A stretch of DNA of 64,000 bases, taken from the NCBI GenBank assembly GCA_964508155.1, contig CAZDRE010000001.1, positions 197,174 through 261,173 of the forward strand, written 5' to 3'. The DNA comes from an uncultured Candidatus Bathyarchaeia archaeon (GTDB lineage: Archaea > Thermoproteota > Bathyarchaeia > Bathyarchaeales > DTEX01). The notes under the pieces are model-generated. The model did not search any database and was not told the origin of the DNA. It saw only the letters and a program-made list of their open reading frames with translations. This document shows, one piece after another, positions 1,748-42,125 of the stretch. Numbering within the stretch: the first letter of the stretch is position 1; each line of letters begins with the position of its first letter. A program made the position numbers and the translations under genes.

Positions 1748-3652
1748 ATGATCAACCAACGATATGAGATGAGACAATCTAATATTACGCTTAGAAAGAA
1801 AGCCCTTGAGCCATTACCGTTAGGCTCTATTCGACCTGAGGGATGGCTACTAAATCAACTACGCATACAGGCAGATGGCCTCAGCGGACATTTAGATGAG
1901 TTCTGGCCGGACATCAAGGATAGCGCATGGTTTGGAGGTAACGCCGATAATTGGGAGCGTGCCCCCTACTGGCTTGATGGAATAGTTCCCCTCGCATTCC
2001 TACTTGATGATCCGACATTAAAGGCTAAGGTCGAGAAATATATGGATCTTATCATTAAACGTCAAGATAAGAGTGGATGGATAGCGCCAAGCGATGACCC
2101 GGCAAACTATGATCTTTGGGCAGTATTTCTGGTCCTAAAACCATTGATCCAATATTATGATGCTACAGCCGATGAGCGCGTTCCAAGAGTTGTTAAGAGA
2201 TGTTTACGCTGGTTAGATGAGCATATCGGCAGCCATCCATTATTCAATTGGGGAAAATTCAGATGGTTTGAGTGTCTAATAAGCATTTACTGGCTTTATG
2301 AGAGAACTGGGGAGAAGTGGCTTCTGGATCTTGCCGTCAAATTAGAGGCTCAGGGCTTTGACTGGGAAGACTTCTTCGAACGTTGGCCACTAAAGGAGCC
2401 TACTCCAAAGGGAAAATGGAACTACATGGGGCATGTAGTTAATAATGCCATGGCTATTAAGGCCCCCGCACTGTGGTGGCGCCTAACAGGAGACGAGAGG
2501 GACAAGAGGATGACGTATGAGATGATCGAGAAGCTGGATAGATATCACGGCACGGTTACAGGCGTCATATATGGCGATGAATGCTTAGCCGGAAAGAATC
2601 CCTCACACGGCACCGAGTTATGCGCAATCGTTGAGTATATGTATTCACTTGAGATTTTACTCTCCATCCTCGGAGATCCGAAGTTTGGGGATCGCTTGGA
2701 GAAGATAGCCTATAATGCTCTTCCGGCGGCTTTCTCATCGGATATGTGGGCGCATCAGTATGATGAGCAGGTGAATCAAGTTGAGTGTAGCATTAGGGAG
2801 GGCAGGATCTGGACGACTAATTCCGCAGATGCGAATATTTATGGTTTAGAGCCGAATTATGGATGTTGCACAGCGAACTTCAGTCAGGGATGGCCGAAGT
2901 TCGCGGCTCATCTATGGATGCGAACGGCGGATGATGGGTTGGCAGCCGTTGCTTATGCGCCGTGCAGAGTAGCGACTACTATCAGGGGAGTGCCCGTTAG
3001 AGTCGACGTTACTACGGATTATCCCTTCCGAGAGGAGATCGACATAAGCATAGAAGTTGAGGAGACCGTGCAGTTTCCGCTTTATCTAAGAATTCCATCA
3101 TGGTGTGGAGATGCCATACTTGAGATTGATGGGGAAAGGATTGGTCCTCCCGAGGCTGGAGTGTTCTTCAAAGTGGAGAGGATATGGACCGGCAGATCGA
3201 ATATTAGATTGGTATTGCGGATGAAACCACGCATTTACCGTCGCTATCGGAATTCAATAGTCCTCGAACGCGGCCCTCTGGTATATGCATTAAAGATAGG
3301 AGAGAATTGGAGGAAGATACGTGAATACAAATCTTATCGTGGATTTCCAGTTGCTGATTGGGAGGTCTATCCTACAACCCCATGGAATTACGCTCTCGAC
3401 CTAGGCGAGAAGGATCTTGGCAGACTAAGGTTCATTGAGCATCCAATAGGCGAAAGGCCATTCTCACCTGAAGAAGCGCCCATCTCAGTTAAGGTTAAGG
3501 GTATAAGGATAGACTCTTGGAGGCTAGATAGAGGCTCAGCTGGGGAGATGCCAGAAAGCCCAGTCAGCGCGGAGGGAAAACTCGTCGACCTAACACTAGT
3601 TCCTTACGGCTGCACCCACCTCAGGATAGCTGAATTTCCAACAATAAAATAA
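1748..3652 (+). CDS. GH127 / DUF1680-family glycoside hydrolase (beta-L-arabinofuranosidase-like)
   Basis: 634 aa. It has a HGTELCA (E-x-C) motif and a later GCCTANFSQGWPKF motif (Cys-Cys), matching the Zn/Cys catalytic signature of GH127. Confidence 0.7.
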   Translation: MINQRYEMRQSNITLRKKALEPLPLGSIRPEGWLLNQLRIQADGLSGHLDEFWPDIKDSAWFGGNADNWERAPYWLDGIVPLAFLLDDPTLKAKVEKYMDLIIKRQDKSGWIAPSDDPANYDLWAVFLVLKPLIQYYDATADERVPRVVKRCLRWLDEHIGSHPLFNWGKFRWFECLISIYWLYERTGEKWLLDLAVKLEAQGFDWEDFFERWPLKEPTPKGKWNYMGHVVNNAMAIKAPALWWRLTGDERDKRMTYEMIEKLDRYHGTVTGVIYGDECLAGKNPSHGTELCAIVEYMYSLEILLSILGDPKFGDRLEKIAYNALPAAFSSDMWAHQYDEQVNQVECSIREGRIWTTNSADANIYGLEPNYGCCTANFSQGWPKFAAHLWMRTADDGLAAVAYAPCRVATTIRGVPVRVDVTTDYPFREEIDISIEVEETVQFPLYLRIPSWCGDAILEIDGERIGPPEAGVFFKVERIWTGRSNIRLVLRMKPRIYRRYRNSIVLERGPLVYALKIGENWRKIREYKSYRGFPVADWEVYPTTPWNYALDLGEKDLGRLRFIEHPIGERPFSPEEAPISVKVKGIRIDSWRLDRGSAGEMPESPVSAEGKLVDLTLVPYGCTHLRIAEFPTIK

Positions 3653-7982: not shown

Positions 7983-10100
7983 CTAAGACTCATTTTCGCC
8001 TTTTCTACTCCTAATCTTGATCGAAACTAAGACTACAAGCAAAAAAGCCAAGATCAAGCCGGTCAAGAAGCCCCTGAGATACTCATATGCTCCTATCACT
8101 TTCACCTCCGGTATCTCCACGGCCTTAAATGTTAAATATCCAATCGAGACCCTTCCGCTCTTTTGAAGTTTAATCTTCGAGCCATTTACTATCAGAGATG
8201 ACCCGCCCACCAGACATATCCTAGCATTGTTATCCCATAATCTCGATAGATTCAGAAGTATATCAGCATCCTTTAATTCGGCTGATAGGATCCTGCATGT
8301 AGTCAGATGGATTACATGTGGAGATGAGGGCTTGCCGAATTTAATTTTGAACTCGTATCTTCCATGCTCCAGCTCGGGGAGGATCACGTAATCATCCGAG
8401 AATAGAGGGTAGGATCTATTCATGAATTCGACATTACGTATCGTCTTTCCATCTACCCTCAGGCACATGCATGACAGATATCGTAGGTATTCCTCCGGAA
8501 CATCATGTGTGTCCAGCCGAACTATTATCAAATCGGGCATATATGTGATCCTAATCTTAACTTTCTCCCATGCTTTAAATCTACGGAGAAATTCCGTGGC
8601 AGTCATCGAGGAGACATCCACTCTATTGGCATACTCGTACCTTAGAACTTTAAGGAAGACTGCTCTTCTGGTCTTATTGATTAGGCTATAGTCATGCCAT
8701 AGTAGCAGGTAGGGAGCTGAATGGCCTAAAGCATAGAAACCATCGAAGTTTTCCTTCTCGATCCTAAAGGCTTCTTTGGGCGAATACTTCATGAGGTCAA
8801 AATAGTAATAGTCTGATTTTGTGCTCCTCCAGAATATGAAGATAGAGTCGTTCTGTAAAGGCTGAATCCCAACCATGCGCAGAAATGGGTAGGCGAATGT
8901 TTGGATGGCATATTCATACCCAGCCTTCCTCATGAGCGGATAATACTCGATCGGGAACATTCCATCTGGAACCTGCAGACCGCTGATCCTAGTTAGATTT
9001 CCAGCGATATCCCTATAGCTCTGGGCGAGTTCAAACATAACTCTCTCTTTACTCGTAACGTATCTCCAAACTGGATGATGAACTGTGTGACTTGCAAATT
9101 CGACGCCCGCCTCTAACGAGGCATTAAATAGATCCCTTAGTGAGAGCCAATCGATTGTCTTCTCCAATCCACTATAATTTCCGGTTATAATGGCCCAAGA
9201 GAAAGTGAAACAATTCTTTTCGGATCTCCTTAGAAGCCATGATAGGGCATCTCCAGTTGCATCTCTATCGGCGGACCAGTCGGCGTCGATATTGAGCATC
9301 CAGATGACCCTTCCACAGGCCAAGTTCAGGCCTACTGGAGTGTGATCTCCGAAGATACACCATTGAATCGACCTAAGCATGATGCTTGTCCTCTGGAAGA
9401 GGCTGTCTGACGCTGAGAGGGTGAATAGAACCGCCCGGCCACCTCCATACCTCGATGCCACGGCCAGGATGTCTCCTACATTCGTCCGTAAGAGAACAGA
9501 TGCATTCGGCGATGAACTTAAGATTATGTAATCGTAGCTTATATCTTCCAATGGGATCCTATCTCCCACGTGATCCAATGTTATTCTATGCCTCTCCGCC
9601 AAGACAACGAAATCCTTTCCGGATCTAAAGAAGACCCTCTGCAAACCGAAAATTCTCCCGTAAAATCTTATCCAATCATCCATGTAGAACGAAAGGTTTC
9701 CTCTCCGATATGCTGGTATTCCAAAGCAAATAAATGAACCTCCGGACTTGAGCCATTCATCAAGCGCATCTAAAAAGGGCGTAGAGACATTTCTGCTGAG
9801 ATAGCGGGCATACGGGAAGATTAGGCATGAATACTTTGACAGGTCTATGTGTAAAAGATTCTGCTCATCGATTATCTCATACGGGATTCCGGCGAGTAAA
9901 AGGCAGTATTGAACCGCAAGCAAGGCATAATGGGATTCTGCAACATTAATCTGGGCATACCTTAGCGAGTAGACTATTGCAACCGGCTTAACCATGAACT
10001 CGATTGGATATGTATGAGCGGCTGACGATTCCACGTGGACGAGGCTTGAGAGTATAAGTAGGAGCATCAGAACATTCAGGAATCTTCGGGGCAGAAGCAT
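7983..10100 (-). CDS. Secreted, C-terminally membrane-anchored protein with a polysaccharide-deacetylase (NodB-like) core
   Basis: 705 aa. It has an N-terminal signal-like segment (LLPRRFLNVLMLLLILSSLV) and a C-terminal TM helix with a basic tail (LILAFLLVVLVSIKIRSRK). An internal DADWSAD ... ASHTVHHP segment resembles NodB motifs. Many N-x-S/T sequons are present. Confidence 0.5.
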   Translation of the reverse strand: MLLPRRFLNVLMLLLILSSLVHVESSAAHTYPIEFMVKPVAIVYSLRYAQINVAESHYALLAVQYCLLLAGIPYEIIDEQNLLHIDLSKYSCLIFPYARYLSRNVSTPFLDALDEWLKSGGSFICFGIPAYRRGNLSFYMDDWIRFYGRIFGLQRVFFRSGKDFVVLAERHRITLDHVGDRIPLEDISYDYIILSSSPNASVLLRTNVGDILAVASRYGGGRAVLFTLSASDSLFQRTSIMLRSIQWCIFGDHTPVGLNLACGRVIWMLNIDADWSADRDATGDALSWLLRRSEKNCFTFSWAIITGNYSGLEKTIDWLSLRDLFNASLEAGVEFASHTVHHPVWRYVTSKERVMFELAQSYRDIAGNLTRISGLQVPDGMFPIEYYPLMRKAGYEYAIQTFAYPFLRMVGIQPLQNDSIFIFWRSTKSDYYYFDLMKYSPKEAFRIEKENFDGFYALGHSAPYLLLWHDYSLINKTRRAVFLKVLRYEYANRVDVSSMTATEFLRRFKAWEKVKIRITYMPDLIIVRLDTHDVPEEYLRYLSCMCLRVDGKTIRNVEFMNRSYPLFSDDYVILPELEHGRYEFKIKFGKPSSPHVIHLTTCRILSAELKDADILLNLSRLWDNNARICLVGGSSLIVNGSKIKLQKSGRVSIGYLTFKAVEIPEVKVIGAYEYLRGFLTGLILAFLLVVLVSIKIRSRKGENES

Positions 10101-10148
10101 CTCCCAGAGGCGACCTAAGCTATGTTATGCTTTATGGCCAATCGGCTA

Positions 10149-11693
10149 TTATCCTCTCATAGGCCATCTCAAAACATGCATGATATCGGTCTTCGTTATT
10201 ATTCCAAGCAGCTTCTTAGGGTTTCTTTTGTCGACAACCAGTATCCTCCCGATTTTATGCTCGCTCATCTTTTCATAGACGTTCATTGCGGACTCGGTTG
10301 GGTACGCCGTTATCAGCCTTTTATGGGCTATCTCTTTAACTAGGGTCTCCTTGCGTCTTGAGGCTGGAACCCTAGATACATCATCGAAAGTCACTATCCC
10401 AACGAGCTCATCCCTTTCATTTAGAACTGGATAGCCCATGTGATGATGCTTGGTCATTATCGTCAGAACATCCTCAACGGTATATTCAGGCCTAACAGTT
10501 ATTATCTCCCTCGTCATTATCTGCTCAGCCCTAAGACTTGAGAGCAGACTTATCTCACGGGGCAGGAGCTCAAGCATGCGAATATATACTGGAGGAACAG
10601 GCTCTCTCCATCTCTTTCTCCTCTCTATTTCTTTAGCGGCGTATCTCTTCTTTAGGAGACCCATCTCTACGAAGTGAGCGTAGACATCCGGTCTCTCCTC
10701 TATCTTCCTAACGCGAATGACATTCGCTTTTACAGCGTCCTCAAATATTTCCTCGCCTATTTCGGTTCTTATGATGACTATCGACCAGTCCTTCAGTGGG
10801 TGGGCTCCTCCAACTGAGATGTCGGCGAGCTCGGATGTGAAGTCCTCACACATCTTACAGACGCTTAGCGTGTGCGCTTCAATTTCTGGTATGGATATTG
10901 ATATAACCCTTCCATCCTTCATAGAAACCTCATACTTCTTGTCAAGGTCGATCCTTAGGATATCACTGGCATTTACATTATATGCCTCCTTCAGGAATTT
11001 TGTGAGTTCAGGAAAGGAGAAACTCCAGAGGCATATTAGGCCTATAACTATCTTTAGGCTATTCATGATCTTATGCTCCCAGGCCTCAAGCTTTCGGATC
11101 GCCCTGACATGGCACGGCGTTCCAACAAAGGCTATCTTCGTCTTGCCGTATTCGTGAACTGCCCTTCCGAAGGCCTTAGCGACTGATGATGGAAAGTATT
11201 CGAAGTCAACTGCTGATAATAGATCGTCTGGAACGAGACTAAGTAATGGCTTAACCTTTATTGGAGTCTCCTTCTCGCTCTCTGATGTTATTGCGCCATC
11301 TATAAATCCAGTCTTGATTGCATGCATAAGTAGTGCGGTGATAACCCCTCCGCTATGACTTATCTCCCTCAATCTCTCATCGACGGCCTGTGCCAGGATT
11401 ATCTTCCGATAGTATCCTATGCTCTCAGTTATGTTCGGAGCTCCAGCGACGAATCCTAAAGTCTCTAGTAGAAGCGCTTCAGTGAATGGACATATGTCAT
11501 AGCATATTGGACAGAACTCCATGAAGTTTGTGCAGTCATGCGTATATTTGAGGCTTCTACCCTCGATCTTCAAGGCATGCACGGGACAAGCAGCTTCACA
11601 TGCACCGCAGAGATTACAAAAACCCGGCTCAATTATCATCTTCTTTAGGTCATTATATGCGATTAGATCCCTAGAAGTCTTCATGATCTCCAC
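10149..11693 (-). CDS. FrhB/FdhB-family flavo-iron-sulfur protein with an N-terminal 2x[4Fe-4S] domain and a C-terminal CBS pair
   Basis: Motifs CNLCGACEAACP and CPICYDICP, then an FrhB-like core (HSGGVITALL, KIAFVGTPCHVRAIRKLE). The last ~125 aa (10152-10526) form two CBS repeats. It starts 6 nt downstream of the hydrogenase ferredoxin gene. Confidence 0.8.
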   Translation of the reverse strand: MEIMKTSRDLIAYNDLKKMIIEPGFCNLCGACEAACPVHALKIEGRSLKYTHDCTNFMEFCPICYDICPFTEALLLETLGFVAGAPNITESIGYYRKIILAQAVDERLREISHSGGVITALLMHAIKTGFIDGAITSESEKETPIKVKPLLSLVPDDLLSAVDFEYFPSSVAKAFGRAVHEYGKTKIAFVGTPCHVRAIRKLEAWEHKIMNSLKIVIGLICLWSFSFPELTKFLKEAYNVNASDILRIDLDKKYEVSMKDGRVISISIPEIEAHTLSVCKMCEDFTSELADISVGGAHPLKDWSIVIIRTEIGEEIFEDAVKANVIRVRKIEERPDVYAHFVEMGLLKKRYAAKEIERRKRWREPVPPVYIRMLELLPREISLLSSLRAEQIMTREIITVRPEYTVEDVLTIMTKHHHMGYPVLNERDELVGIVTFDDVSRVPASRRKETLVKEIAHKRLITAYPTESAMNVYEKMSEHKIGRILVVDKRNPKKLLGIITKTDIMHVLRWPMRG

Positions 11694-11699
11694 TCAGAC

Positions 11700-12044
11700 T
11701 TAACTTTCTCTCCTATACTCATAAATCATTTTCTCACGGTCATCACCGGCATGCTCAAATTCGTCAGTCATGGTTATTGCGTTTCTTGGGCAACTCTCAG
11801 AGCATTGCCCACAGAATATGCATCTGTCAACGTAATGTTTTATCTCGGCTTTTAGGCCCTTCCCTATCATCTCGATCGCGCCGGAGGGGCATATGCGGCT
11901 ACATAGTCCGCATCCAACGCACTTTTGCATGTCCCAAACTGGACGTCCCCTGAAATCCTTGGGCACGGCTGCCTTCTCGAACGGATATTTGAGAGTGATC
12001 GGAGACTTGAAGATCTGCCTTATCGCCTCTAGTATTATGGACAA
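11700..12044 (-). CDS. 2x[4Fe-4S] ferredoxin subunit (NuoI/EchF/MbhN-like) of hydrogenase 1
   Basis: Motifs CVGCGLCSRICP and CIFCGQCSESCP. It overlaps the large-subunit gene by 10 nt. Confidence 0.85.
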   Translation of the reverse strand: MSIILEAIRQIFKSPITLKYPFEKAAVPKDFRGRPVWDMQKCVGCGLCSRICPSGAIEMIGKGLKAEIKHYVDRCIFCGQCSESCPRNAITMTDEFEHAGDDREKMIYEYRRES

Positions 12045-13204
12045 TGCTTTCTCATCCTCCGTACATTCTCTCTTAGGGTGTCGAAGTCTAGGATCTTCTT
12101 TCTTCCCGTGTTTACATCGATGAGGGCAAGCCTATCCATGCATGCGAAGCATGGGTCTATTCCAGCTAGGACTATCGGTATGTCGGCTACATGCTGTCCC
12201 ATCAGCATCTTGCATAGGGCTGGAATATTCGCTAGTGTTGGGCTTCTAACCTTATAGCGTTCAGGCCTAGCCGTTCCATTAGACCTTGCATAATGGATGA
12301 GCTCGCCTCTTGGAGCTTCAACCCTAGATACCGCCTCGTTTGGTTCTACAGCCATTGGAACCCTAACGCGTAGCATGCCTGCAGGCATGTGATCAAGGGC
12401 GTAGCGTATCATATTTATGCTCTCAAGCATCTCCTCGCACCTCACGATTATCCTAGCGAATACGTCGCATCCATCATGGATTACTACATTGAATGGTATC
12501 TCGTCGTAGGCTGCATACGGATCGTCCCTACGCACATCATTCTTTATTCCGCTTGCGCGTAGGGTTGGGCCTACAGCGCAGAGTTCAATCGCGTCTTTAG
12601 GCTTCAGAACCCCAACATCCACAGTTCTTTTTTGGATCGTCCTATCTGAACTTATGATCTTCATGTAATATTTGATCCTCTTCTCTAGAAAGTCTAGGCC
12701 ATCCTTTATCTTTGGAATCATCTCCGATGGTATGTCCCTTCTAACCCCTCCTATTGTATTCATTGCGTAGTGAACTCGATTCCCAGATATGAACTCAAGC
12801 ATGTCCATCACCGTCTCTCTGTCACGCCACAGATACATGAAGAGCGTATCGAAGCCTATCTCATGAGCGGCTATTCCAAGCCATAATGAATGGCTGTGTA
12901 TCCTTTCGAGCTCGGCTATTATCACACGTATATACTTCGCCCTTAGCGGGGCCTCGATGCCTAGAAGATCCTCTATTGCCTGCGTGTAGCATGTTGTATG
13001 GGCATCTGAGCATATTCCGCAGATACGTTCAGCCAAATAAATATTCTGAATGTATGTTCTTCTCTCGAATGCCTTCTCTATCCCCCTATGATTGTAGCCT
13101 ATTCTAGGCTTGACGTTAACGATTATGTCCCCATCAACCTCGAATGTAAAATGCTCCGGCTCCTTTAAGGCCGGATGCTGAGGGCCGAATGGAACCTTAA
13201 CTAT
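12035..13204 (-). CDS. [NiFe]-hydrogenase large subunit, group-4 type (EchE/MbhL/NuoD-like), hydrogenase 1
   Basis: L1 motif ERICGICSDAH and L2 motif DPCFACMDR, followed by a ~30-aa C-terminal extension. The conserved N-terminus (VKVPFGPQHPALKEPEHF...IGYNHRGIEK) is in frame upstream of the first canonical start (TTG at 13036). The only start-like codon there is ATA at 13204. Confidence 0.85.
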   Translation of the reverse strand: MVKVPFGPQHPALKEPEHFTFEVDGDIIVNVKPRIGYNHRGIEKAFERRTYIQNIYLAERICGICSDAHTTCYTQAIEDLLGIEAPLRAKYIRVIIAELERIHSHSLWLGIAAHEIGFDTLFMYLWRDRETVMDMLEFISGNRVHYAMNTIGGVRRDIPSEMIPKIKDGLDFLEKRIKYYMKIISSDRTIQKRTVDVGVLKPKDAIELCAVGPTLRASGIKNDVRRDDPYAAYDEIPFNVVIHDGCDVFARIIVRCEEMLESINMIRYALDHMPAGMLRVRVPMAVEPNEAVSRVEAPRGELIHYARSNGTARPERYKVRSPTLANIPALCKMLMGQHVADIPIVLAGIDPCFACMDRLALIDVNTGRKKILDFDTLRENVRRMRKHCP

Positions 13205-13710
13205 TGATCCGTAACCCGCCTTTCATCCCTCCCCGACTTGAGTATTGAGCCGCGAAGATCTTCTAGGCGGTATTCCTTTCTGAGCGGATAGATGCCCCTC
13301 GGCCAATTCTCGGGTAGAACCAGCGGGATCAAGTCTGGATGCCCAACGAAGTCTATCCCGAATAGATCATGAACTTCGCGCTCATACAATATCGCTCCTG
13401 GAATAACATCTGTTATCGTGGGGACTCTGGGATTCTCCTTTGGAACGTTGAATCTTAGGGATAATTCTATGGAGCCCTTATATGCGAAGTGATAGATAAC
13501 CTCAAAGTTCTCTTTGAGGTCTACTGCCGTTATCGTGGATAAATGCGTGAACCCCATGTCTTTCAGGTGTCTAATCGCATCCTTAAAGGCTTCGCTTCTT
13601 ACCCAAACAAAGATCCTACGTTTCCTCGGAACCTTCACATCTATTATGCCTTCTCTAAGCTGTCTCCTCAACTCAGATACTATCTCATCCTCTTCCATTA
13701 GCATCGCCAC
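13201..13710 (-). CDS. NuoC/EchD/MbhK-like (30-kDa family) subunit of hydrogenase 1
   Basis: Contains HLSTITAVD, ILYEREVHDLFGIDFVGHPD and LRKEY, the NuoC-family pattern. Confidence 0.85.
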   Translation of the reverse strand: MAMLMEEDEIVSELRRQLREGIIDVKVPRKRRIFVWVRSEAFKDAIRHLKDMGFTHLSTITAVDLKENFEVIYHFAYKGSIELSLRFNVPKENPRVPTITDVIPGAILYEREVHDLFGIDFVGHPDLIPLVLPENWPRGIYPLRKEYRLEDLRGSILKSGRDERRVTDQ

Positions 13711-14125
13711 GCTTGATCTTTTGAATGAGCTTTACCACGCCGTCGATTATAGCTTCAGGCTTAGGCGGACATCCCGGAACATAAACATCCACTGGGAGAA
13801 CCTCATCGACCCCTCCCAGGACATTATAGCAATCCTTGAATGGCGCTCCGCTGCATGCGCATGCCCCTATAGCCAGAACGTATTTTGGCTCAGGCATCTG
13901 ATCATATATCCTTACAAGCCTATCCCTAACCTGAAGTGTTACGGGACCTGTAACTGCGAGGATGTCAGCATGCCTCGGGCTTCCCTTAAGGAGGATGCCG
14001 AAACGTTCAACATCGAATCTTGGAGTGAAGGCAGCTACAACTTCTATGTCGCATCCGTTACATCCGCCGGCGTTAAAATGTATGATCCAAGGCGATCTCG
14101 TTTGAGCCCACCTAAGCAACCCCAT
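13685..14125 (-). CDS. [NiFe]-hydrogenase small subunit, group-4 type (NuoB/EchC/MbhJ-like), hydrogenase 1
   Basis: The four Cys of the proximal cluster are present (GGCNGC, GACACSG, PGCPP). Size is 146 aa. Confidence 0.9.
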   Translation of the reverse strand: MGLLRWAQTRSPWIIHFNAGGCNGCDIEVVAAFTPRFDVERFGILLKGSPRHADILAVTGPVTLQVRDRLVRIYDQMPEPKYVLAIGACACSGAPFKDCYNVLGGVDEVLPVDVYVPGCPPKPEAIIDGVVKLIQKIKRGDANGRG

Positions 14126-14209
14126 GACTATTCCTTCTTAGGAGGTATTCCTCAATCCTTTCTTCTATAAAGAGGAGAGTATGGTTTAAAGGTTTCTAGG
14201 CTCAAGGAC

Positions 14210-14956
14210 TCAGAAGCCCTTAAAATAATCGTACATCTCCAGGATCTCCCTGATCTTTTCAGAGAATACGGTCTTGGAGAATCTATTTGGGTCTCCGATG
14301 GCTTCTTCGAGCACATGATCGAATGGTATCTCCCCGAGATATTTCAGGCCGATCTCTCTTATTCGCTCTCGTATAAACGTGGATTCTCCCATCTTCATGT
14401 TCTCGATCACTCCTACTATCGGAACATTCAATTCGAGGAGTAGATCAATCAGCTTTTTAACGGTCTCAAATGCCAGCCTAGATGGCGTCACCACCAAGAG
14501 GAACCTAACCCTCTTCATGAGCTTGATTACGTCTAGGGTTGCATCGCCAATCCCCGGAGGCATATCGACTATTAAGTAGTCAAGTTGACCCCACCGAGTT
14601 ATTGCTAACAATTCTATCAGGGCATTTGATGCTTCCAATCCCCTTAGTGGCAGGGCTCTGTTGTCGGAAAAGTAGATTATGGACATGTATTTTATGCTGT
14701 GTATCTCAGGCGGGATTATGCCCTTCCACTCGGTCGGATGGGCCTCTCCCGCATTTAAGATGACATGTGTTGATGGGCTTGTGAAGTCCAGGTCTAAGAG
14801 TCCAACTTTATACTTTTTCTTCGCTAGGGCTAGGGCTATTGCGGATGCTATTAGGCTTTTGCCGACTCCTCCCTTCCCGCTTGAAACGGCGATTATATCG
14901 CTTATGTCCTTTAGTCTCTCATCTATGATGGATAATCTTGGATCCGACATCTTCAC
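14210..14956 (-). CDS. Mrp/MinD-family P-loop ATPase; probable ATPase-type HypB (Ni insertion partner of HypA)
   Basis: Deviant Walker A SGKGGVGKS. It overlaps hypA by 4 nt and precedes the hydrogenase 1 genes. No GTPase-type HypB is present in the window. Confidence 0.6.
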   Translation of the reverse strand: MKMSDPRLSIIDERLKDISDIIAVSSGKGGVGKSLIASAIALALAKKKYKVGLLDLDFTSPSTHVILNAGEAHPTEWKGIIPPEIHSIKYMSIIYFSDNRALPLRGLEASNALIELLAITRWGQLDYLIVDMPPGIGDATLDVIKLMKRVRFLLVVTPSRLAFETVKKLIDLLLELNVPIVGVIENMKMGESTFIRERIREIGLKYLGEIPFDHVLEEAIGDPNRFSKTVFSEKIREILEMYDYFKGF

Positions 14957-15354
14957 TTTACGCCCTTCAAGTCCTCAATCCAAACTCCACGTCCACCTAT
15001 AACCTCAAAGTCCGGACTGCCACATTTGGGGCATCTAATAAATGCGTGGATGACCTCCGGGATGAAGTGTATTGCCTCGGCTACATTCCCATCTATCTTC
15101 TCCTTTTCAAGGGACCATTTGAACCCGCAGTTTCTACATTTAATCTCGGCGTTAACGACCTCTATGTTGAACTTGGCATTCTTGAGGAGGCTTGAGTCTC
15201 TAAGTTGAGTTAAGGCGAACTTGAATACTTCGAGCTCTATTTGCTGGAGCTCCCCGATCTTCAATTTTACCTCCCTAATCTCCCTAAGTCCTTCACTCTC
15301 AGCTAGTCTAGAAATAGTTGAGATGACTGCTTCGGCTAAGGCCCATTCATGCAT
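14953..15354 (-). CDS. hypA: Hydrogenase nickel incorporation protein HypA
   Basis: N-terminal MHEWALAEA motif and zinc motifs CRNCG...CPKCG. The start is placed at the internal ATG at 15354 rather than at the ORF-track start at 15429. Confidence 0.9.
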   Translation of the reverse strand: MHEWALAEAVISTISRLAESEGLREIREVKLKIGELQQIELEVFKFALTQLRDSSLLKNAKFNIEVVNAEIKCRNCGFKWSLEKEKIDGNVAEAIHFIPEVIHAFIRCPKCGSPDFEVIGGRGVWIEDLKGVK

Positions 15355-15374
15355 GGGAAAGCCTAGACTACAAC

Positions 15375-15386
15375 AATATTTAAAGG
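15375..15386. promoter_or_regulatory. TATA-like box (aatatttaaagg) in the hypA / hypE divergent spacer
   Basis: It is centred ~26 nt upstream of the hypA ATG (15354), consistent with a leaderless mRNA, and ~55 nt upstream of the hypE ATG (15435). Confidence 0.4.
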
Positions 15387-15434
15387 TAATGCTGAGTGGA
15401 GATCCGTGGTGAGCTACAGCGTGGTGCATAATGG

Positions 15435-16502
15435 ATGAGGAGTAGAGATGGACATATTACTATGCTTCACGGCGCTGGCGGAACCGCCATGCACAGCCTA
15501 ATCAAGGATTATATTCTGAAGTATTTTGGGGAGGATCTCGAAGTTGATGTTCCGCTTGAGGCCTTGGATGACGCCGCGGTTATTGGCGATATTGTATTGA
15601 AGAGCGACTCGCACGCCGTTAAGCCCATATTCTTTCCGGGAGGAGATATCGGCTGCATAGCGGTTGCTGGCACCGTAAATGATATTGCGGTTTTAGGCGC
15701 TGAACCCCACGCCTTAGCGTGCGGCTTCATCCTAGAGGAGGGATTATCCCTAAGCGACTTCGAAAGGATCTTAATGAGTATGCGGCGGATGTGCCGCATG
15801 GCAGGAGTGAATATCGTTACTGGAGATACGAAGGTTGTTGAAAAGGGAAGTTTAGGGGGCTGTGTCATAAACACTTCTGGGATAGGCAGAAGGACTGATG
15901 CCCTAGAGAGAAACCTTAAGGTTGTGAGAGAGTTTAGGGGCGACTTCAAGGCGCGGTGGATTTTAGATTCGAATCTGAGGAAGGGCGATAAGATAATATT
16001 GTCAGGCACAATTGGGGATCACGGCGTAGCCGTTCTATCAGCGCAGGAAGGATTAGATTTTGGAGGAGATATAAAATCTGATGTTAAGCCTCTAAACCGG
16101 ATGATACAGGGCCTTTTAGGCGAGGTTGGCGGCGTAGTCGCAATGAAGGATCCAACTCGCGGGGGATTGGCTGATGCATTAAACGAGATCAGCGAGAAGT
16201 CCAATGTCGGCATACTTATCTATGAGGATAAGATTCCGATTAGAGATTCCGTGCGGGCTGCATGTGAGATGCTGGGCCTTGATCCCCTTGAGATAGGGAA
16301 TGAGGGTAAGGTGGTTATAGGCGTCGTTAGGGAGGCAGCGGAGGACGCCCTGGAATTTTTAAGGTCTACTGAGGAGGGGAGGGATGCTGAGATAATTGGA
16401 GAGGCAACCGATGAGTTTTCAGGCGTGGCCATGCAGACCATGATAGGCGGAAAGAGGATAATTAATAGGCCGGTTGGGGATCCAGTTCCGAGGATATGCT
16501 AA
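15435..16502 (+). CDS. hypE: Hydrogenase maturation protein HypE
   Basis: AIR-synthase-like fold pattern, N-terminal LHGAGG and the terminal PRIC motif. Confidence 0.9.
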   Translation: MRSRDGHITMLHGAGGTAMHSLIKDYILKYFGEDLEVDVPLEALDDAAVIGDIVLKSDSHAVKPIFFPGGDIGCIAVAGTVNDIAVLGAEPHALACGFILEEGLSLSDFERILMSMRRMCRMAGVNIVTGDTKVVEKGSLGGCVINTSGIGRRTDALERNLKVVREFRGDFKARWILDSNLRKGDKIILSGTIGDHGVAVLSAQEGLDFGGDIKSDVKPLNRMIQGLLGEVGGVVAMKDPTRGGLADALNEISEKSNVGILIYEDKIPIRDSVRAACEMLGLDPLEIGNEGKVVIGVVREAAEDALEFLRSTEEGRDAEIIGEATDEFSGVAMQTMIGGKRIINRPVGDPVPRIC

Positions 16503-17590
16503 TCCCCTCTGAAGCTCATGTTCTTCGCCCATATCCTGCATGTGCCCTCCATGCTCACCATGCATGGCCCCACTGGATTCTGCGGAGTGCACGCCTTCAT
16601 GAATAGTGGACATTCAGTCGGCCTTATCCTCCCAACTATTATGAGGTGACATTTGCATCCAGCCGGAATATCAACTCCACGTTCAACCCTTACGTTATAC
16701 TTCAGCCTTGAATCGTAGTTTTCATATTTGCCGCGGATCCTTAGTGCTGAATCCCTGATCATGCCGAGGCCTCTCCATCCGCCATCTACAACCTCAAAGG
16801 CGGCGCTCATCATCTTCTGAGCACGCACATTCCCCTCAGGCAGAACAGCCCGCACATACTCATTCTCCAAACGGGGCTTTCCCATTCTCAGTTGCCTGAG
16901 AATCATGTATATAGCGAATAAAACGTCTAGTGGCTCAAATCCCGCGATGACTGTTGGGATGCGATAATATTTCGGGAAGATCCTGTATGGTTTGAGCCCA
17001 ATAATAGTGCTGACGTGACCTGGCGCGATGAATCCATTCAAGTTTAGTTCTTCCATCTCGGCTAGGAGCTTCATTGCAGGCGGGATTAGCCGATGTGAGA
17101 TGAGGAAACTCATGTTTCTTGGAGGACCCTTTATGATCTCTACGGCTGTTGATGGAGCCGTAGTCTCGAATCCTATGGCGAAGAATGCGAATTGCCTGTC
17201 CGGTTCCCTCTCCGCCATCTTCACGGCGTCTGAGACGCTATAGACTACGCGTACATCCGCTCCTTCAGCCTTCGCATCTAGAAGGGACATGCTTGATCCT
17301 GGAACTCGCAGGACATCCCCGAAACATGCGATTACGACGCCATTTAATGCTAGTTGGATCGCTTCATCAATCTCTGATGCTGGGGTGATGCAGACTGGAC
17401 ATCCAGGCCCGGCGATGACCTCAACGTTAGATGGTAGTAGACTGCGTATTCCACAGTGCGTTATTGTCCACTCGTGTGTTCCGCAGACATGGCATATCTT
17501 TATCATGTCCTGATCTGATGCGAGCCTATGGATCCTCTCTACTATTCGCCTCGCTAAATCGGCATCTCTAAACTTTAAGTTTCCGATCAT
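16499..17590 (-). CDS. hypD: Hydrogenase maturation protein HypD
   Basis: Motifs CHVCGTHEW, GPGCPVCITP and GFETTAPS. Confidence 0.9.
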   Translation of the reverse strand: MIGNLKFRDADLARRIVERIHRLASDQDMIKICHVCGTHEWTITHCGIRSLLPSNVEVIAGPGCPVCITPASEIDEAIQLALNGVVIACFGDVLRVPGSSMSLLDAKAEGADVRVVYSVSDAVKMAEREPDRQFAFFAIGFETTAPSTAVEIIKGPPRNMSFLISHRLIPPAMKLLAEMEELNLNGFIAPGHVSTIIGLKPYRIFPKYYRIPTVIAGFEPLDVLFAIYMILRQLRMGKPRLENEYVRAVLPEGNVRAQKMMSAAFEVVDGGWRGLGMIRDSALRIRGKYENYDSRLKYNVRVERGVDIPAGCKCHLIIVGRIRPTECPLFMKACTPQNPVGPCMVSMEGTCRIWAKNMSFRGD

Positions 17591-17829
17591 TAGGCATCAG
17601 CACGCTGAGCCTCATCTGCCTCTAGGATCTCATTCCATAATCGAATCGTCTCCTCAGCCTGCTCTCTACTTAGGACTTGAATTGCATAGCCAGCGTGAAC
17701 CAGAACGTATTCTCCAACCTTAACGTCCACCAGCGTTACGTCTATCTCCTTTATGATTCCCCCTCCGAAGTCCACTTTAGCCCTATTCTCATGGATGCAT
17801 AGGACCTTAGCCGGAACAGCCAGACACAT
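17590..17829 (-). CDS. hypC: Hydrogenase maturation chaperone HypC
   Basis: N-terminal MCLAVPAKV. The start is set at the ATG giving Met-Cys. The stop overlaps the hypD start. Confidence 0.9.
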   Translation of the reverse strand: MCLAVPAKVLCIHENRAKVDFGGGIIKEIDVTLVDVKVGEYVLVHAGYAIQVLSREQAEETIRLWNEILEADEAQRADA

Positions 17830-17867
17830 GATCATCCAAGCATAAATGAATTGGAGAAATAAATCAG

Positions 17868-20156
17868 TTATGTTTGGTTTGAGTAAGCCGCTATGGCTGC
17901 CTGGCCGAGGGATAATCCGCCATCACCCGGTGGGATCGAGTTATGAACTAGGAATTTTAATCCTGAGTCTTCGATGATCCTCCGCATGATCGTGGTTAGG
18001 ATCTGGTTGCATGCCACTCCGCCTGAAAATCCTACTGTCTTAACGTTCTCTTCCATGGCTTTCTCTATGGCTAATTCTGCGAGTCCCCTAGCGAGATATG
18101 AATGCAGCGAGTATGCGAGATCAGCCTTTGAGTATCTGCTTCTATTCTCGAAGATCTCAATTAGGGGTTCGGTTGTATCTAGGATGTCATTTGCTATATT
18201 GGGTTTAAGTTTGAGGATGTCTCTGCCGCTGATCGCTAGGGACTCCAGCTTCATGGCCGGCTCCCCCTCATAGGTGCGTTCGTAGCATACATCTAGAATC
18301 GCCGCTGCGGCGTCTAGGATCCTCCCGCAGCTCGTCGTCCTTATGCCTCTTCCCCGCTTAATCTGTTTGAGGATAACCTCTATTTCCCTCTCGCCGTGTG
18401 GGAATGACTTCCTATGCTGTAGGAGCCATTCTTCAACGTCAACCCTTCCATGTAATATTCCGGCTGCCATTCTCAGCGGGTAGCGTGCGGCTAGATCCCC
18501 GCCTGTCAGCGGCTGCCGTTCTAGATGTGCTAGACGCTTGAAATCTACGCTCTCCCGCGTGCAGAGGAGTATCTCGCCTCCCCAAGCTTCACCGTCCAGT
18601 CCATATCCGTATCCGTCGCATGCTATGCCTATGATCTCGTCTGTGCCATGCTCAGCCATTAAAGCCGCGATGTGCGCGTGGTGATGCTGAATTTGGATCA
18701 TCTGCCAATCATTCTCCTCTGAGAGCTCCTCTGCAAGGCTTGTCGTTACGAATTTCGGATGGAGATCACATGCTATAACCTTGACCTTCCCATTCGTCAA
18801 GTGGATTAGATGCCTTATGGAGCTCTTGAGGAAGGCTCTAGTCTCAACGTTCTCTACATCGCCTATATGCTGGGTCAGAAAGGCCTTCCTCCCAATTAGG
18901 ATGCAGCCAGTATTATTTAGCTCTCCGCCTAAGCCAACAGCGCAGCGTTTAGCTGCATGCCGCAACATTATCGGAGCCGGCGCATAGCCGCGTGAACGCC
19001 TCAGAAAGACTGTGCTTTCACCGTGGACGCGTATGACTGAATCGTCACATCTCTGGGCGATCCGTCTATTATGGAAGAGTATGTAGTCGGCTACGTCACC
19101 GAGCCTCTTCAGGGCTTCCTCATCATCCTTCACTATAGGCTGATTCGGGGGGTTAGCGCTCGTCATCACGAATGCGGGATCATCGGTCTTATCGAAGAGC
19201 ATGTAATGCAGGCCTGTATATGGGAGCATAACCCCAACATTGTGTAGGCTAGGCGCAATCAGATCTGAAAGGTAATAATTCTCGGATTTTTTCAGGAGGA
19301 CTATGGGGCGTGCATGGGATGTTAGAAGTTCACGCTCCCACCGGTTTATTTCAGCGAATGACCTAACTGCATCTAGACTTCGAGCCATGATCGCGAATGG
19401 CTTCTGCCTCCTATGCTTTGCCCTCCTAAGCCTGAGAAGCGGCTCATCCATCAGTGTTGAGGCGGCTAGGTGGAAGCCTCCGTAACCCTTAATCGCGACG
19501 ATATAACCCTCAGATACGAGCTGGCCAGCCATACGGATTGGGTCATTACACTCTATCCGCTCGCCTCTATTATCCGTGAGATAAACTTTTGGACCGCACT
19601 TTGGGCATGCGATGGTCTGAGCGTGGAATCGCCTATTTAATGGGTCAGCATACTCATTCATGCAGAATTGGCACATGGGGAAGTCCCGCATTGTAGTGTT
19701 CTCTCTATCGTAGGGTAGGCTCTCAATCACCGTGTATCTTGGGCCGCAGTTCGTGCATGTAATGAAGAAGTAATCGTATCTTGGATCCTTGGGATCTCTC
19801 AGTTCCCTTAGGCAATCATCGCAGATCGCAATGTCTGGAGGTATTATTGAGCCTGAAAGCTCAGCTTCCCTCGAACTCTTTTGGATAGTGAATTCCTTGA
19901 ATCTATATTTTCCCTTTAGATGTGAAGTTTTTATCTCGTGGATTACGGCGAGCGGAGGCTTCTTCGCTCTTAATTCCCTTAGGAAATCATCGATCTTCTC
20001 CTTGTCTCCTTCAAGCAGTATCTCTACTCCAGCGTCCCCCCTATTTCTGACGTAGCCATTCAAGCCCTTCCCGACTGCTAGGCGGTATATGAATGGACGG
20101 AAGCCTACCCCCTGAACTATTCCCGTAACTCTAACCTTCAAGCGTGCCATTACCAT
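17868..20156 (-). CDS. hypF: Carbamoyltransferase HypF
   Basis: Acylphosphatase domain (VTGIVQGVGFRPFIYRLA), two CxxC-X18-CxxC zinc fingers, and YrdC-like and Kae1-like domains. Size is 762 aa. Confidence 0.95.
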   Translation of the reverse strand: MVMARLKVRVTGIVQGVGFRPFIYRLAVGKGLNGYVRNRGDAGVEILLEGDKEKIDDFLRELRAKKPPLAVIHEIKTSHLKGKYRFKEFTIQKSSREAELSGSIIPPDIAICDDCLRELRDPKDPRYDYFFITCTNCGPRYTVIESLPYDRENTTMRDFPMCQFCMNEYADPLNRRFHAQTIACPKCGPKVYLTDNRGERIECNDPIRMAGQLVSEGYIVAIKGYGGFHLAASTLMDEPLLRLRRAKHRRQKPFAIMARSLDAVRSFAEINRWERELLTSHARPIVLLKKSENYYLSDLIAPSLHNVGVMLPYTGLHYMLFDKTDDPAFVMTSANPPNQPIVKDDEEALKRLGDVADYILFHNRRIAQRCDDSVIRVHGESTVFLRRSRGYAPAPIMLRHAAKRCAVGLGGELNNTGCILIGRKAFLTQHIGDVENVETRAFLKSSIRHLIHLTNGKVKVIACDLHPKFVTTSLAEELSEENDWQMIQIQHHHAHIAALMAEHGTDEIIGIACDGYGYGLDGEAWGGEILLCTRESVDFKRLAHLERQPLTGGDLAARYPLRMAAGILHGRVDVEEWLLQHRKSFPHGEREIEVILKQIKRGRGIRTTSCGRILDAAAAILDVCYERTYEGEPAMKLESLAISGRDILKLKPNIANDILDTTEPLIEIFENRSRYSKADLAYSLHSYLARGLAELAIEKAMEENVKTVGFSGGVACNQILTTIMRRIIEDSGLKFLVHNSIPPGDGGLSLGQAAIAAYSNQT

Positions 20157-21191: not shown

Positions 21192-21677
21192 TTAAATGTC
21201 CTCATCTGAGAGTATCTCAAGAAGCATCCTCGCGATCCTCCTTGCTGATCTTTGAACCTCAAAGCTCATCTCCTCCCCAAATCCGATCCTCCGCGGCTGT
21301 ATAGCCAGGAGCATGACCCTCGCGCCCAAAGTCTTCTCGATGACCTCCGCTAAAACTGAGAGTGGAACGTTATGGGTTGATAGAGGGATGCCCGAAATCA
21401 TTTCTGGCTTTATAAGCCTAGCCTCGCCTGGGTAGCCTCCGAAGTGCGCAGCGTCCATCATCAAGACGTGGGATGGACTGAACTTTCTTATCTCGCCTAT
21501 GAAGTTCTCCGGAACTGACTGGCAATCTATTATCTTAACTTTGTCTGGGACTTTACCCTTGAGCAACCTGACTATCTCTACTCCTACTCCATCGTCTCCC
21601 CTCATGGGGTTTCCTATGCCGAGTATTACCAGTCTCCCATAGTTCTTCAGCCAATCTGAAAGGCATCTCATTAACAT
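21192..21677 (-). CDS. Hydrogenase maturation endopeptidase (HycI/HybD family)
   Basis: LVILGIGNPMRGDDGVGVEIV motif, with an HNV/His near the C-terminal third. Both large subunits carry cleavable C-terminal extensions. Confidence 0.85.
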   Translation of the reverse strand: MLMRCLSDWLKNYGRLVILGIGNPMRGDDGVGVEIVRLLKGKVPDKVKIIDCQSVPENFIGEIRKFSPSHVLMMDAAHFGGYPGEARLIKPEMISGIPLSTHNVPLSVLAEVIEKTLGARVMLLAIQPRRIGFGEEMSFEVQRSARRIARMLLEILSDEDI

Positions 21678-21701
21678 AAGAGCCGCTTCCGAACTGAAGT
21701 T

Positions 21702-22298
21702 TTAGAGGAATCTTCCCTTATAGAATGTTGTGGCTGGGCATCCTATACATTTCCCAGATGGGTAGCATAATTCTTCGCTGCATATCTTTCCGCAGGGGGA
21801 TCTACTTCCCCTCTTATACCACATTTTTATTGGAACAACGAGATCCTTCGCCGTTGCTATGACCACATTGAACTCAACATCCGTGACGTTTGGATTCTTC
21901 CTTATGTGGTAGTTTATGCAGGACTCAATCGCTGAGAGCCTCTCACCTATGAAGAATAGACATAAATTGTGCCTGCCAGAGGTGACCAGTCCGTTAATAA
22001 ACATTGGGCAGTTCTCAAAGAAGCCCAAAACCTTCCATGGATCCCTCGCTGTCATATCTATCTTCGCTATGTATAAATCCGTCTCCTTCAGGTTCATTCC
22101 GACAACATGCTCTATGACCCCGGCGTCCTCTAATCTCTTTATCCTAGCATAAACCGCCGGCTGGGATATTCCAAGCCTCCGAGCGATCTCGCTCTGAGAG
22201 ATCCTCGGTTCCTCCATCAGATATGATATTATTCTCTTATCAATCTCATCTATCTCGGCGCCTCTCAATGCCTTCACCAGCCTACACTTAAGTGCCAA
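21702..22298 (-). CDS. Lrp/AsnC-family transcriptional regulator with a Cys-rich C-terminal extension
   Basis: HTH segment DKRIISYLMEEPRISQSEIARRLGISQPAVYARIKRLEDAGVI, then a RAM-like domain, then the tail CGKICSEELCYPSGKCIGCP. It lies divergent to the hydrogenase 2 operon. Confidence 0.75.
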   Translation of the reverse strand: MALKCRLVKALRGAEIDEIDKRIISYLMEEPRISQSEIARRLGISQPAVYARIKRLEDAGVIEHVVGMNLKETDLYIAKIDMTARDPWKVLGFFENCPMFINGLVTSGRHNLCLFFIGERLSAIESCINYHIRKNPNVTDVEFNVVIATAKDLVVPIKMWYKRGSRSPCGKICSEELCYPSGKCIGCPATTFYKGRFL

Positions 22299-22450: not shown

Positions 22451-22924
22451 ATGCTGACGAGAACAAAGAGCAACCAAAGGGTTCTACTATTTGATCCTGC
22501 AAGGTGCACTGGATGCAGGTACTGCGAGATCGCATGTTCATTCTATCATTTTGGGACGTTAGGCTTTGAAGGGGCAAATCTGCATGTGATATTTGATGAG
22601 GAGAGAGACGAGTTTGAGGCTATATATTGTCAGCACTGCGATGAGCCCATATGCATGGCTGCATGCCCAAACAGTGCTATAACAAAGGATGAGGAGACGG
22701 GATGGGTTAGGATAAACCCAACCATATGCATAGGATGTAAAACTTGCAGTATAGTCTGCCCTCTCTCCGCTCCATGGTTCAACGAGAAATTCCATGTTTC
22801 AATGAAATGCGACTTCTGCGGTGGAGATCCACAATGCGCCAAGTTCTGCTCTCCGCAGGCAATAAGGGTGACGACGCGTGAGGAGGCCTTAAGACTCAAT
22901 AAGAGGAGATATTTGGAGGTTTAG
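22451..22924 (+). CDS. Multi-cluster [4Fe-4S] ferredoxin subunit (HycB/DmsB-like) of hydrogenase 2
   Basis: Motifs CTGCRYCEIAC, CQHCDEPICMAACP, CIGCKTCSIVCP and CDFCGG..CAKFC. Confidence 0.85.
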   Translation: MLTRTKSNQRVLLFDPARCTGCRYCEIACSFYHFGTLGFEGANLHVIFDEERDEFEAIYCQHCDEPICMAACPNSAITKDEETGWVRINPTICIGCKTCSIVCPLSAPWFNEKFHVSMKCDFCGGDPQCAKFCSPQAIRVTTREEALRLNKRRYLEV

Positions 22925-22928
22925 GTTC

Positions 22929-23597: not shown

Positions 23598-23603
23598 AGT
23601 TGC

Positions 23604-24479: not shown

Positions 24480-24482
24480 GCC

Positions 24483-41144: not shown

Positions 41145-41204
41145 TAATCATTAAAAGGGCAGCTTCCCCTATATTTCGTTTAGTTCTACAGTTTCATTTT
41201 GGAA

Positions 41205-42053: not shown

Positions 42054-42125
42054 AGCCTTATGTCAGCCCGATAAAGATATAACATTTTCCGGATGCATTA
42101 ATGAGTGAGGCTCGGAGTGATCTGC

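Follow-up and report, generated by a model that had tools for sequence, protein, structure and literature searches.

This report concerns a five-gene operon found in a stretch of 64,000 nucleotides from an uncultured Candidatus Bathyarchaeia archaeon (GenBank assembly GCA_964508155.1, contig CAZDRE010000001.1, positions 197,174 to 261,173), hereafter called the 64-kb window. The operon encodes subunits of a [NiFe] hydrogenase together with an FrhB-family protein fused to a pair of CBS domains. The five genes are closely packed on the minus strand, from 14125 to 10149, and Pfam bears out the order given by a sequence-only reading made before the present analysis, namely small subunit, NuoC-like subunit, large subunit, NuoI-like ferredoxin and a 514-residue protein. 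The operon and its immediate flanks comprise the following features:

14166-14171, minus strand: possible own promoter of the operon, a TATA-like TTTATA read from the sequence, about 43 nt upstream of the small-subunit ATG
13685-14125, minus strand: NuoB-like hydrogenase small subunit, 146 aa (Pfam Oxidored_q6, E 7e-33; NCBIfam NuoB subfamily, 175 bits, above the cut-off)
13201-13710, minus strand: NuoC-like (30-kDa) scaffold subunit, 169 aa (Pfam Complex1_30kDa, E 3.7e-35)
12035-13222, minus strand: [NiFe] large subunit, NuoD/FpoD-like, about 390 aa (Pfam Complex1_49kDa, E 5e-74, and NiFeSe_Hases)
11700-12044, minus strand: NuoI-like 2x[4Fe-4S] ferredoxin subunit, 114 aa (Pfam Fer4 families; NCBIfam NuoI, 100 bits, just under the cut-off)
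10149-11693, minus strand: FpoF/FrhB-like subunit fused to a CBS pair, 514 aa (Pfam Fer4, FrhB_FdhB_N, FrhB_FdhB_C and two CBS)
10100-7983, minus strand: next gene downstream, 705 aa, with a weak deacetylase match (E 0.002)

The tight spacing described from the sequence is real: the small-subunit and NuoC-like genes overlap by 26 nt, the large-subunit and NuoI-like genes by 10 nt, and 6 nt separate the NuoI-like gene from the last one. The large subunit carries both motifs reported for it, L1 (RICGICSDAH, within ERICGICSDAH) and L2 (DPCFACMDR), each a CxxC [NiFe] motif, and the 31-residue C-terminal tail that follows L2 suits HycI-type processing. With regard to the iron-sulfur clusters, Cys 22, 25, 89/91 and 119 of the small subunit form a pattern able to bind one proximal [4Fe-4S], two CxxCxxCxxxCP motifs in the NuoI-like subunit fit two [4Fe-4S], and the cysteines of the 514-residue protein (26/29/32/36, 54/61/64/68 and 194/221/279/282) fit three. 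A NuoD-type large subunit with the L1 and L2 ligands, accompanied by a one-cluster NuoB-like subunit, NuoC-like and NuoI-like subunits and maturation genes, agrees with a group 4 [NiFe] hydrogenase, and the five genes are a true module of this type. The membrane subunits (NuoH/HycD-type and NuoL/M-type) encoded with the core of such enzymes are lacking in the operon and in the 64-kb window, where a Pfam scan of the larger open reading frames and BLAST searches against NuoA/H/J/K/L/M references found no Nuo-type membrane subunit. No transmembrane-like segment stands out in any of the five products, and the downstream gene, correctly described as not encoding a polytopic membrane subunit, has an N-terminal hydrophobic stretch and one C-terminal helix. 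An assignment to Ech (group 4e) fails, given that no EchA/B-type genes are present, that the best scores are obtained against Nuo/Fpo models, and that the proteins cluster with the Hfo type, the 11-subunit Fpo-like [NiFe] hydrogenase of Bathyarchaeia assigned to subgroup 4g (Loh, Herve and Brune 2021, PMC7886697). A scan for sigma-70 promoters and terminators gave counts at the level of shuffled sequence, the sigma-70 model not being informative for an archaeon.

The 514-residue protein consists of three parts, with a long linker helix between the second and the third:

11484-11642, minus strand: ferredoxin domain (about residues 18-70)
10689-11423, minus strand: FrhB core (about residues 91-335)
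10170-10535, minus strand: CBS pair (about residues 387-508)

This architecture, first read from the sequence as a 2x[4Fe-4S] domain, an FrhB core and two CBS repeats, is confirmed by the Pfam models FrhB_FdhB_N (PF04422, E 3e-11), FrhB_FdhB_C (PF04432, E 7e-37) and CBS (two domains, E 2.5e-27). Sequence matches in the PDB are 8RIU_B (E 1.6e-44), FrhB in 9R51_B (E 2.6e-42) and 3ZFS_C (E 2.3e-40), 8RJA_E (E 3.9e-31), Fsr in 7NPA_A (E 3e-29) and HCAR in 5DQR_A (E 1.3e-10). An AlphaFold2 model (predicted local distance difference test, pLDDT, of 75; moderate confidence in the ferredoxin domain and in loops 138-169, the packing of the domains being left uninterpreted) has as its top Foldseek hits 8riu_B (E 8e-23), FrhB, 8rja_E and CBS pairs with AMP, ATP or SAM ligands. 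The CBS part of the model (pLDDT about 90) superposes on AMP/ATP/SAM-binding CBS pairs with a root-mean-square deviation of 1.4-2.2 Å, and GhhT/SxxD-like motifs (GIVTFDD and GIITKTD) can be read from its sequence. Chain B of 8RIU is the CODH/ACDS zeta subunit and chain E of 8RJA is FwdI, both from Ca. Ethanoperedens; they are add-on F420 reductases, for which F420 reduction was shown experimentally, and in both an N-terminal ferredoxin domain with two clusters fixes the FrhB-type [4Fe-4S]/FAD domain to the host enzyme and provides the electron path between them (Lemaire et al. 2024). That the closest solved relatives are F420-reducing plug-in modules suggests an F420-linked, adenylate-gated energy-converting hydrogenase, and FAD binding and a reaction with F420 can be predicted for the 514-residue protein from its closest characterised relatives. 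The F420-type acceptor of the sequence-only reading is therefore favoured by the F420-dependent enzymes among these relatives, but not by the family models, whose FrhB and FpoF cut-offs are not reached. By its sequence, the protein belongs to a separate subfamily and is neither an FrhB nor an FpoF equivalog.

The fusion had been considered unusual, as had its combination with a group 4 core, and neither view holds. Nearly all of the best 120 of 814 homologue matches are full-length FrhB-CBS proteins (50-96% identity), and those relatives with a source name are all labelled Bathyarchaeota; FrhB-CBS proteins make up a family that is both large and conserved. Relatives of the FrhB part without a CBS pair occur in L058 and L061 (about 10001-11062; 52% identity), beside a rearranged Hfo cluster and after a convergent L-M unit, and a 369-residue FrhB without CBS in L075 (Hecatellales) is divergent from a full cluster that includes HycI.

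A synteny scan with one genome per species, in which flanks were annotated by BLAST against labelled subunits, covered 60 genomes that carry the fusion, almost all labelled Bathyarchaeia or Bathyarchaeota. In 41 of them, including the complete genome of the cultivated Bathyarchaeum tardum (L029), the FrhB-CBS gene lies within 1.7 kb of Hfo genes, and its position in the Hfo operons is after NuoN, before NuoA or after NuoI. Since every large subunit inspected retains both CxxC motifs, these Hfo-linked complexes are hydrogenases, not Fpo or Nuo. The co-occurrence with group-4 large subunits that the sequence-only reading had proposed to check is thus widespread, but not general, given that at least seven genomes have no Hfo gene within 10 kb of the fusion. 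At Hfo-free loci (L023, L027, L036, L045 and others, about 10001-13600), the fusion gene is in several cases located between an Mrp-like ATPase and aconitase, and dihydroxy-acid dehydratase, adenosine kinase and PAP2 are further housekeeping neighbours. A role as dedicated partner of aconitase or Mrp was ruled out, the neighbours there being unrelated housekeeping genes.

In a neighbour-joining tree and by identities, the large subunit of the window groups with Bathyarchaeial Hfo large subunits. Hfo is known as eleven subunits (A-B-C-D-H-I-J-K-L-M-N) in one cluster, of which only B, C, D and I are present here, and in close relatives of the operon the set is complete, in a single unit or in two neighbouring ones. 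In layout A (L001, L003 and many others), the order is A-B-CD-H-I-J-K-L-M-N-FrhB/CBS. Layout A' (L002, L005, L008, L011, L012, L087, L089 and L091) combines A-B-C-D-H-I-FrhB/CBS with a divergent J-J2-K-L-M unit. Layout B, consisting of hyp genes, Mrp and B-C-D-I-FrhB/CBS with no membrane gene, is found in the window, in L006/L007, in L009 (metagenome-assembled genome, MAG, B71_G16, accession QMXE01; 94% identity) and in L010 (MAG AUK082, accession JAGGUU01), and these loci share hyp synteny. An assembly artefact behind the missing membrane genes was ruled out, as layout and hyp synteny recur in L006/L007, L009 and L010.

Neighbour-joining trees of NuoD and of FrhB-CBS unite the four layout B loci in one clade, nested in or sister to the A' clade, and NuoD of layout B shares 82-86% identity with that of A', versus 53-55% with the one-cluster type that includes B. 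tardum. Layout B has, as these comparisons indicate, a single origin within membrane-encoding operons. A sequence signature of a freed membrane interface was sought between layouts B and A'; there are only one to three fixed amino-acid differences per subunit, which gives no signal either way, and the peripheral arm has therefore not visibly changed since NuoA and NuoH were lost from the operon. The cytosolic Ech-like core proposed earlier is, in view of so few fixed differences from operons that include NuoA/NuoH and a divergent J-J2-K-L-M unit, probably wrong. The sequence-only reading had itself stated that membrane subunits in related operons would speak against it, and such subunits are what the related operons contain.

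As to the whereabouts of the membrane module, a metagenome scan with NuoH revealed that, in relatives, the genes of the peripheral module and those of the membrane module often form units of their own, which are divergent, convergent or unlinked. In L105 and L173, only [K-J2-J] is found divergent from [A-H], followed by a conserved NifX-like gene. The NuoH of these loci is 74% identical to an A' NuoH and forms a clade (50/50 bootstraps) nested in the A' core clade (49/50), the same position as that of layout B in the other trees. The contexts of the closest NuoH homologues (P0131, P0132, P0135 and P0137) are all full operons, the A-H-only loci having come from the metagenome scan. MAG AUK082 harbours both halves: its layout B operon (NuoB MCD6089736, large subunit MCD6089738 and NuoI MCD6089739) is on the 30,415-nt contig L010, and exact-sequence look-ups place NuoJ2, NuoJ, NuoA and NuoH as consecutive entries MCD6089556-MCD6089559 on another contig, of 19,344 nt. 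The AUK082 NuoH is 98% identical to that of L173. The NuoH RLG94391 falls outside the likely accession block of MAG B71_G16 and provides no tie to the species of the window. A mirror image occurs in L013 (PIYA01000063.1, 825-7921), where NuoM-L-K-J2-J is divergent from NuoA-NuoH-FrhB/CBS and B, C, D and I are absent, so FrhB-CBS can remain with the membrane module upon a split of the operon.

Taken together, the operon probably encodes the whole peripheral (cytoplasmic) arm of an Hfo whose genes are split but which is still bound to the membrane, and of which FrhB-CBS would be a twelfth subunit, conserved across the class and overlooked so far. Membrane genes would serve no purpose in the absence of B, C, D and I, and at that position of the tree these four were seen only in layout B, which makes this the most economical explanation; for the organism of the window, assembly on a membrane arm is deduced from the sequences of its relatives. 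From an ancestral arrangement A-B-C-D-H-I-FrhB/CBS beside a divergent J-J2-K-L-M unit, B-C-D-I-FrhB/CBS would have moved into the hyp maturation cluster in the lineage of the window, leaving the membrane module (NuoA-NuoH and J-J2-K-L-M) at another locus. In the assembled enzyme, F420(H2) would exchange hydride with FAD in the FrhB core, and electrons may then reach the [NiFe] site, for production or uptake of H2, by way of the three [4Fe-4S] clusters of this subunit, the two of NuoI and the one of NuoB. The N-terminal 2x[4Fe-4S] domain of the FrhB-like subunit would serve as docking domain, and NuoH/A/J/K together with the antiporter-like L/M subunits would couple turnover to ion translocation. 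An adenosyl ligand bound to the CBS (Bateman) pair may tune electron entry or exit, adjusting the enzyme to the adenylate state. F420 as substrate, the direction of electron flow and the CBS ligand are predictions.

The potential of F420 is about -340 to -360 mV and that of H+/H2 is -414 mV at 1 bar, less negative at low H2. The transfer from H2 to F420 would be mildly exergonic at high H2, and that from F420H2 to H2 feasible only at very low H2 or when driven by an ion gradient, so electrons may flow either way. We tentatively propose, as a possibility that goes beyond the operon itself, that Hfo across Bathyarchaeia is an F420-coupled, ion-translocating hydrogenase with a built-in adenylate sensor, interconverting H2 and F420H2 at the membrane, and that in the lineage of the window the arm might also act as a free, soluble H2:F420 enzyme.

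Several observations weigh against the split, membrane-bound and F420-linked enzyme. The two-locus link rests on one sister MAG and on accession proximity, and binning errors are possible. The presumed partner in the sub-lineage of the window, a NuoA-NuoH locus of the L105/P0140 type, is known only from unbinned contigs, and the 64-kb window without a membrane subunit is the only part of this genome searched. NuoA and NuoH were cleanly removed from the operon, which would also fit selection for a free enzyme. On the side of the flavoprotein, the NCBIfam scores stay under the cut-offs (TIGR03289 frhB, 170 versus 331.5 bits; NF040616 FpoF, 111 versus 475 bits), and some members of the FrhB family, such as HCAR and BciB, do not use F420. 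The genomes with Hfo-free fusion genes point the same way, as does the only F420-biosynthesis-like gene of the window, which scores far under the CofE cut-off.

A different explanation takes the absence of membrane genes at face value: the product would be a soluble, five-subunit, group-4-derived hydrogenase that, in the cytoplasm, exchanges electrons between H2 and a two-electron carrier, F420 or a different one, either as its sole form or as a free pool, and thus a CBS-regulated functional analogue of Frh. Five products devoid of transmembrane helices, a 64-kb window devoid of Nuo-type membrane genes and the clean absence of NuoA/NuoH from four independent contigs would all agree with it. 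Furthermore, the same window contains a second group-4-type operon without a membrane subunit, and Drh of Methanocellales is a published group 4 relative that lacks an antiporter subunit. We nevertheless consider a soluble enzyme unlikely, for the peripheral subunits show nearly no fixed change relative to those of membrane-associated operons, and NuoA-NuoH and J-J2-K loci that are intact and conserved, yet devoid of peripheral genes, occur at the same tree position and in the MAG of the sister operon, where they would be functionless without B, C, D and I.

Still less probable, in our judgement, is that FrhB-CBS is not the F420 module of the hydrogenase and represents a general ferredoxin-linked flavoprotein (Fd:F420 or Fd:NAD(P), as reported for free FpoF), or a protein co-located here for another partner. 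Its scores under the FrhB and FpoF equivalog cut-offs would allow such a role, as would the fusion genes located between an Mrp-like ATPase and aconitase in genomes lacking a nearby Hfo gene. The spacing speaks on both sides: the gap between NuoI and FrhB-CBS amounts to 154-168 nt in L006 and L010, but to only 6-22 nt in the window and in several related operons. An HdrABC partner was proposed for the orphan FrhB by Loh et al. Against this stand the adjacency to Hfo in 41 of the 60 genomes, kept although the gene takes three different places in the operons, and the behaviour of the gene after splitting of the operon, when it went with the peripheral genes in the window and with the membrane genes in L013; moreover, the N-terminal ferredoxin domain is the docking device of ACDS zeta and FwdI.

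The start of the large-subunit gene deserves separate consideration. As listed, the open reading frame begins at TTG 13036 (333 aa); homology and the open frame extend upstream to 13222, with no ATG, GTG or TTG between the in-frame TGA (13225) and TTG 13036. In the window and in L009, GCG (13219-13217) occupies the position where homologues have ATG, and the closest ATG, at 13226, is out of frame by one base. Between the window and L009, the 62 codons that precede TTG 13036 differ by 10 synonymous and 0 nonsynonymous substitutions, and are therefore translated; this could be achieved by starting at a non-canonical codon, by a +1 shift at GGG-T or by reading through from NuoC. Across the operon, divergence from L009 is mostly synonymous, and the genes are, by this measure, functional. 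The large-subunit stretch whose peptides bear on the question of decay comprises the residues GYGSIVKVPFGPQHP. That the operon is decaying, its large subunit having lost the start codon and no active hydrogenase being formed, would explain the missing ATG/GTG/TTG and the GCG, but is highly improbable given the same junction in the independent genome L009, the purely synonymous changes before TTG 13036 and the five intact, colinear genes.

Upstream of the operon lies a cluster of maturation genes:

14210-14956, minus strand: Mrp/NBP35-type P-loop ATPase in the HypB position, between HypA and the small subunit (Pfam ParA/NUBPL, E 1e-53)
14953-15429, minus strand: HypA (from its translation)
15435-16502, plus strand: HypE (from its translation)
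16499-17590, minus strand: HypD (from its translation)
17590-17835, minus strand: HypC (from its translation)
17868-20156, minus strand: HypF (from its translation)
21192-21677, minus strand: HycI-type maturation endopeptidase (Pfam HycI, E 9e-15)

The maturation set beside the operon is complete. The Mrp/NBP35-type ATPase holds the same position in L006, L009 and L010, and in Thermococcus HypB is of the Mrp/MinD type. By BLAST, the hyp genes of the window retrieve syntenic open reading frames in L006, L009 and L010; the L006 copies carry Pfam HupF_HypC, HypD, AIRS (HypE-type) and HypA, and a HycI gene also flanks the hyp cluster in L009 and L010.

The second group-4-type operon (22451-26543, plus strand) has an HdrBC-linked core without transmembrane segments and resembles the published Ehd/Drh-type HdrB-associated hydrogenases. 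It encodes an HdrC-like ferredoxin (157 aa), a NuoC-like protein (222 aa), an HdrB-like CCG protein (291 aa), a large subunit (375 aa, 47% identical to the first) and a small-subunit/NuoI fusion (310 aa), and is immediately preceded by the HycI protease and an AsnC-type regulator (21192-22298). A stand-alone CBS-pair protein of 143 aa (33645-34076, minus strand) is about 30% identical to the CBS part of the 514-residue protein. A PF01996 (F420_ligase family) protein (41199-42053, plus strand) is followed by a URO-D/MtaA-like methyltransferase homologue, the pair spanning 41199-43187; it was discarded as evidence of F420 biosynthesis, scoring 51 bits against a CofE cut-off of 181. GH127-like and GH9-like glycoside hydrolases (1748-3652 and 30936-32831) and a truncated aldehyde:ferredoxin oxidoreductase at the window edge (3-725) hint that this archaeon may use carbohydrates and carry out a fermentation linked to ferredoxin.

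Few archaea in anoxic sediments are as abundant as Bathyarchaeia, whose mode of energy conservation is unsettled. If Hfo is indeed F420-coupled, it would represent a coupling site without a described counterpart among the characterised group 4 hydrogenases, and it may supply the F420H2, so far unaccounted for, that the archaeal Wood-Ljungdahl pathway needs in a very abundant sediment group. Loh et al. (2021, PMC7886697) reported F420 biosynthesis genes in Bathy-6 genomes and left the F420H2 source for methylene-H4MPT reductase unexplained; they described FpoF and FpoO as absent from Hfo, and treated FrhB as an orphan. Qi et al. (2021) give the same account of the Bathyarchaeial fpo-like clusters, and a study of Bathy-6 from 2024 includes an FpoF encoded at a separate locus. 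The class-wide link between the FpoF-like protein and Hfo runs counter to these statements of FpoF absence, since the CBS-fused gene accompanies Hfo in most genomes, the genome of the only cultivated representative among them. It leads to a concrete hypothesis, namely an F420-linked energy-converting hydrogenase under nucleotide control. In the searchable literature, we found no mention of the class-wide link, the CBS fusion, the adjacency or the split layout. "Membrane-less" operons can be one half of a split complex, which affects the assignment of hydrogenases as soluble or membrane-bound from MAG fragments.

With regard to known systems, the window operon shares with Hfo the NuoB/C/D/I-type peripheral subunits, the intact L1 and L2 motifs in the NuoD homologue and the Bathyarchaeial origin, and its nearest relatives carry NuoA/H/J/K/L/M; it differs in that 4 of the 11 subunits are encoded, within a hyp cluster and with the membrane genes elsewhere, and in that an FpoF-like, CBS-fused gene is clustered with Hfo in most genomes. 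Fpo of Methanosarcina and Fqo of Archaeoglobus, with FpoF/FqoF, combine a complex-I-like core with an FrhB-family subunit containing 2x[4Fe-4S], a further [4Fe-4S] and flavin. As in Fpo, the FrhB-family subunit would pass electrons to the NuoI-type subunit, and the FpoF, FpoD, FpoC and FpoI models match the window proteins, all with scores under the Fpo cut-offs. However, FpoD lacks the [NiFe] cysteines and the complex reduces methanophenazine, whereas the [NiFe] site of the window protein is intact and protons/H2 replace the quinone-like acceptor; FpoF, in addition, has no CBS pair. The predicted overall chemistry, involving H2, F420 and an FrhB-type subunit, is the same as that of FrhABG (group 3a), but the window subunits are of the NuoD-NuoB type (the frhA model scores 76 versus 392 bits), and FrhB possesses neither the N-terminal ferredoxin domain nor the CBS pair. 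ACDS zeta and FwdI provide the best matches in sequence and fold, with the same N-terminal two-cluster ferredoxin and FrhB-type [4Fe-4S]/FAD domain; their hosts are CODH and formylmethanofuran dehydrogenase, they lack a CBS pair, and identity amounts to 23-29%.

The HdrB-associated group 4 hydrogenases Ehd, Ehe, Drh and Ehg, of which Drh has no antiporter subunit (Culexarchaeia preprint, 10.1101/2022.04.06.487207), also consist of a group 4 core with an exchangeable electron-acceptor module, which in their case is HdrBC, acting in disulfide chemistry, and not an FrhB flavoprotein. The view that FrhB proteins do not accompany group 4 enzymes, still held in the sequence-only reading, has been overtaken by a 2025 paper on cultivated Methanonezhaarchaeia, which describes frhB beside the genes of a membrane-bound group 4 hydrogenase and proposes that the enzyme oxidises F420H2. 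Compared by description, that complex likewise unites a group 4 enzyme with an FrhB homologue; it comes from another class and is of another type, and no CBS fusion is mentioned for it. The pairing of FrhB with a group 4 hydrogenase has thus been published before, and what the sequences examined here appear to add is the class-wide link to Hfo, the CBS fusion and the split layout.

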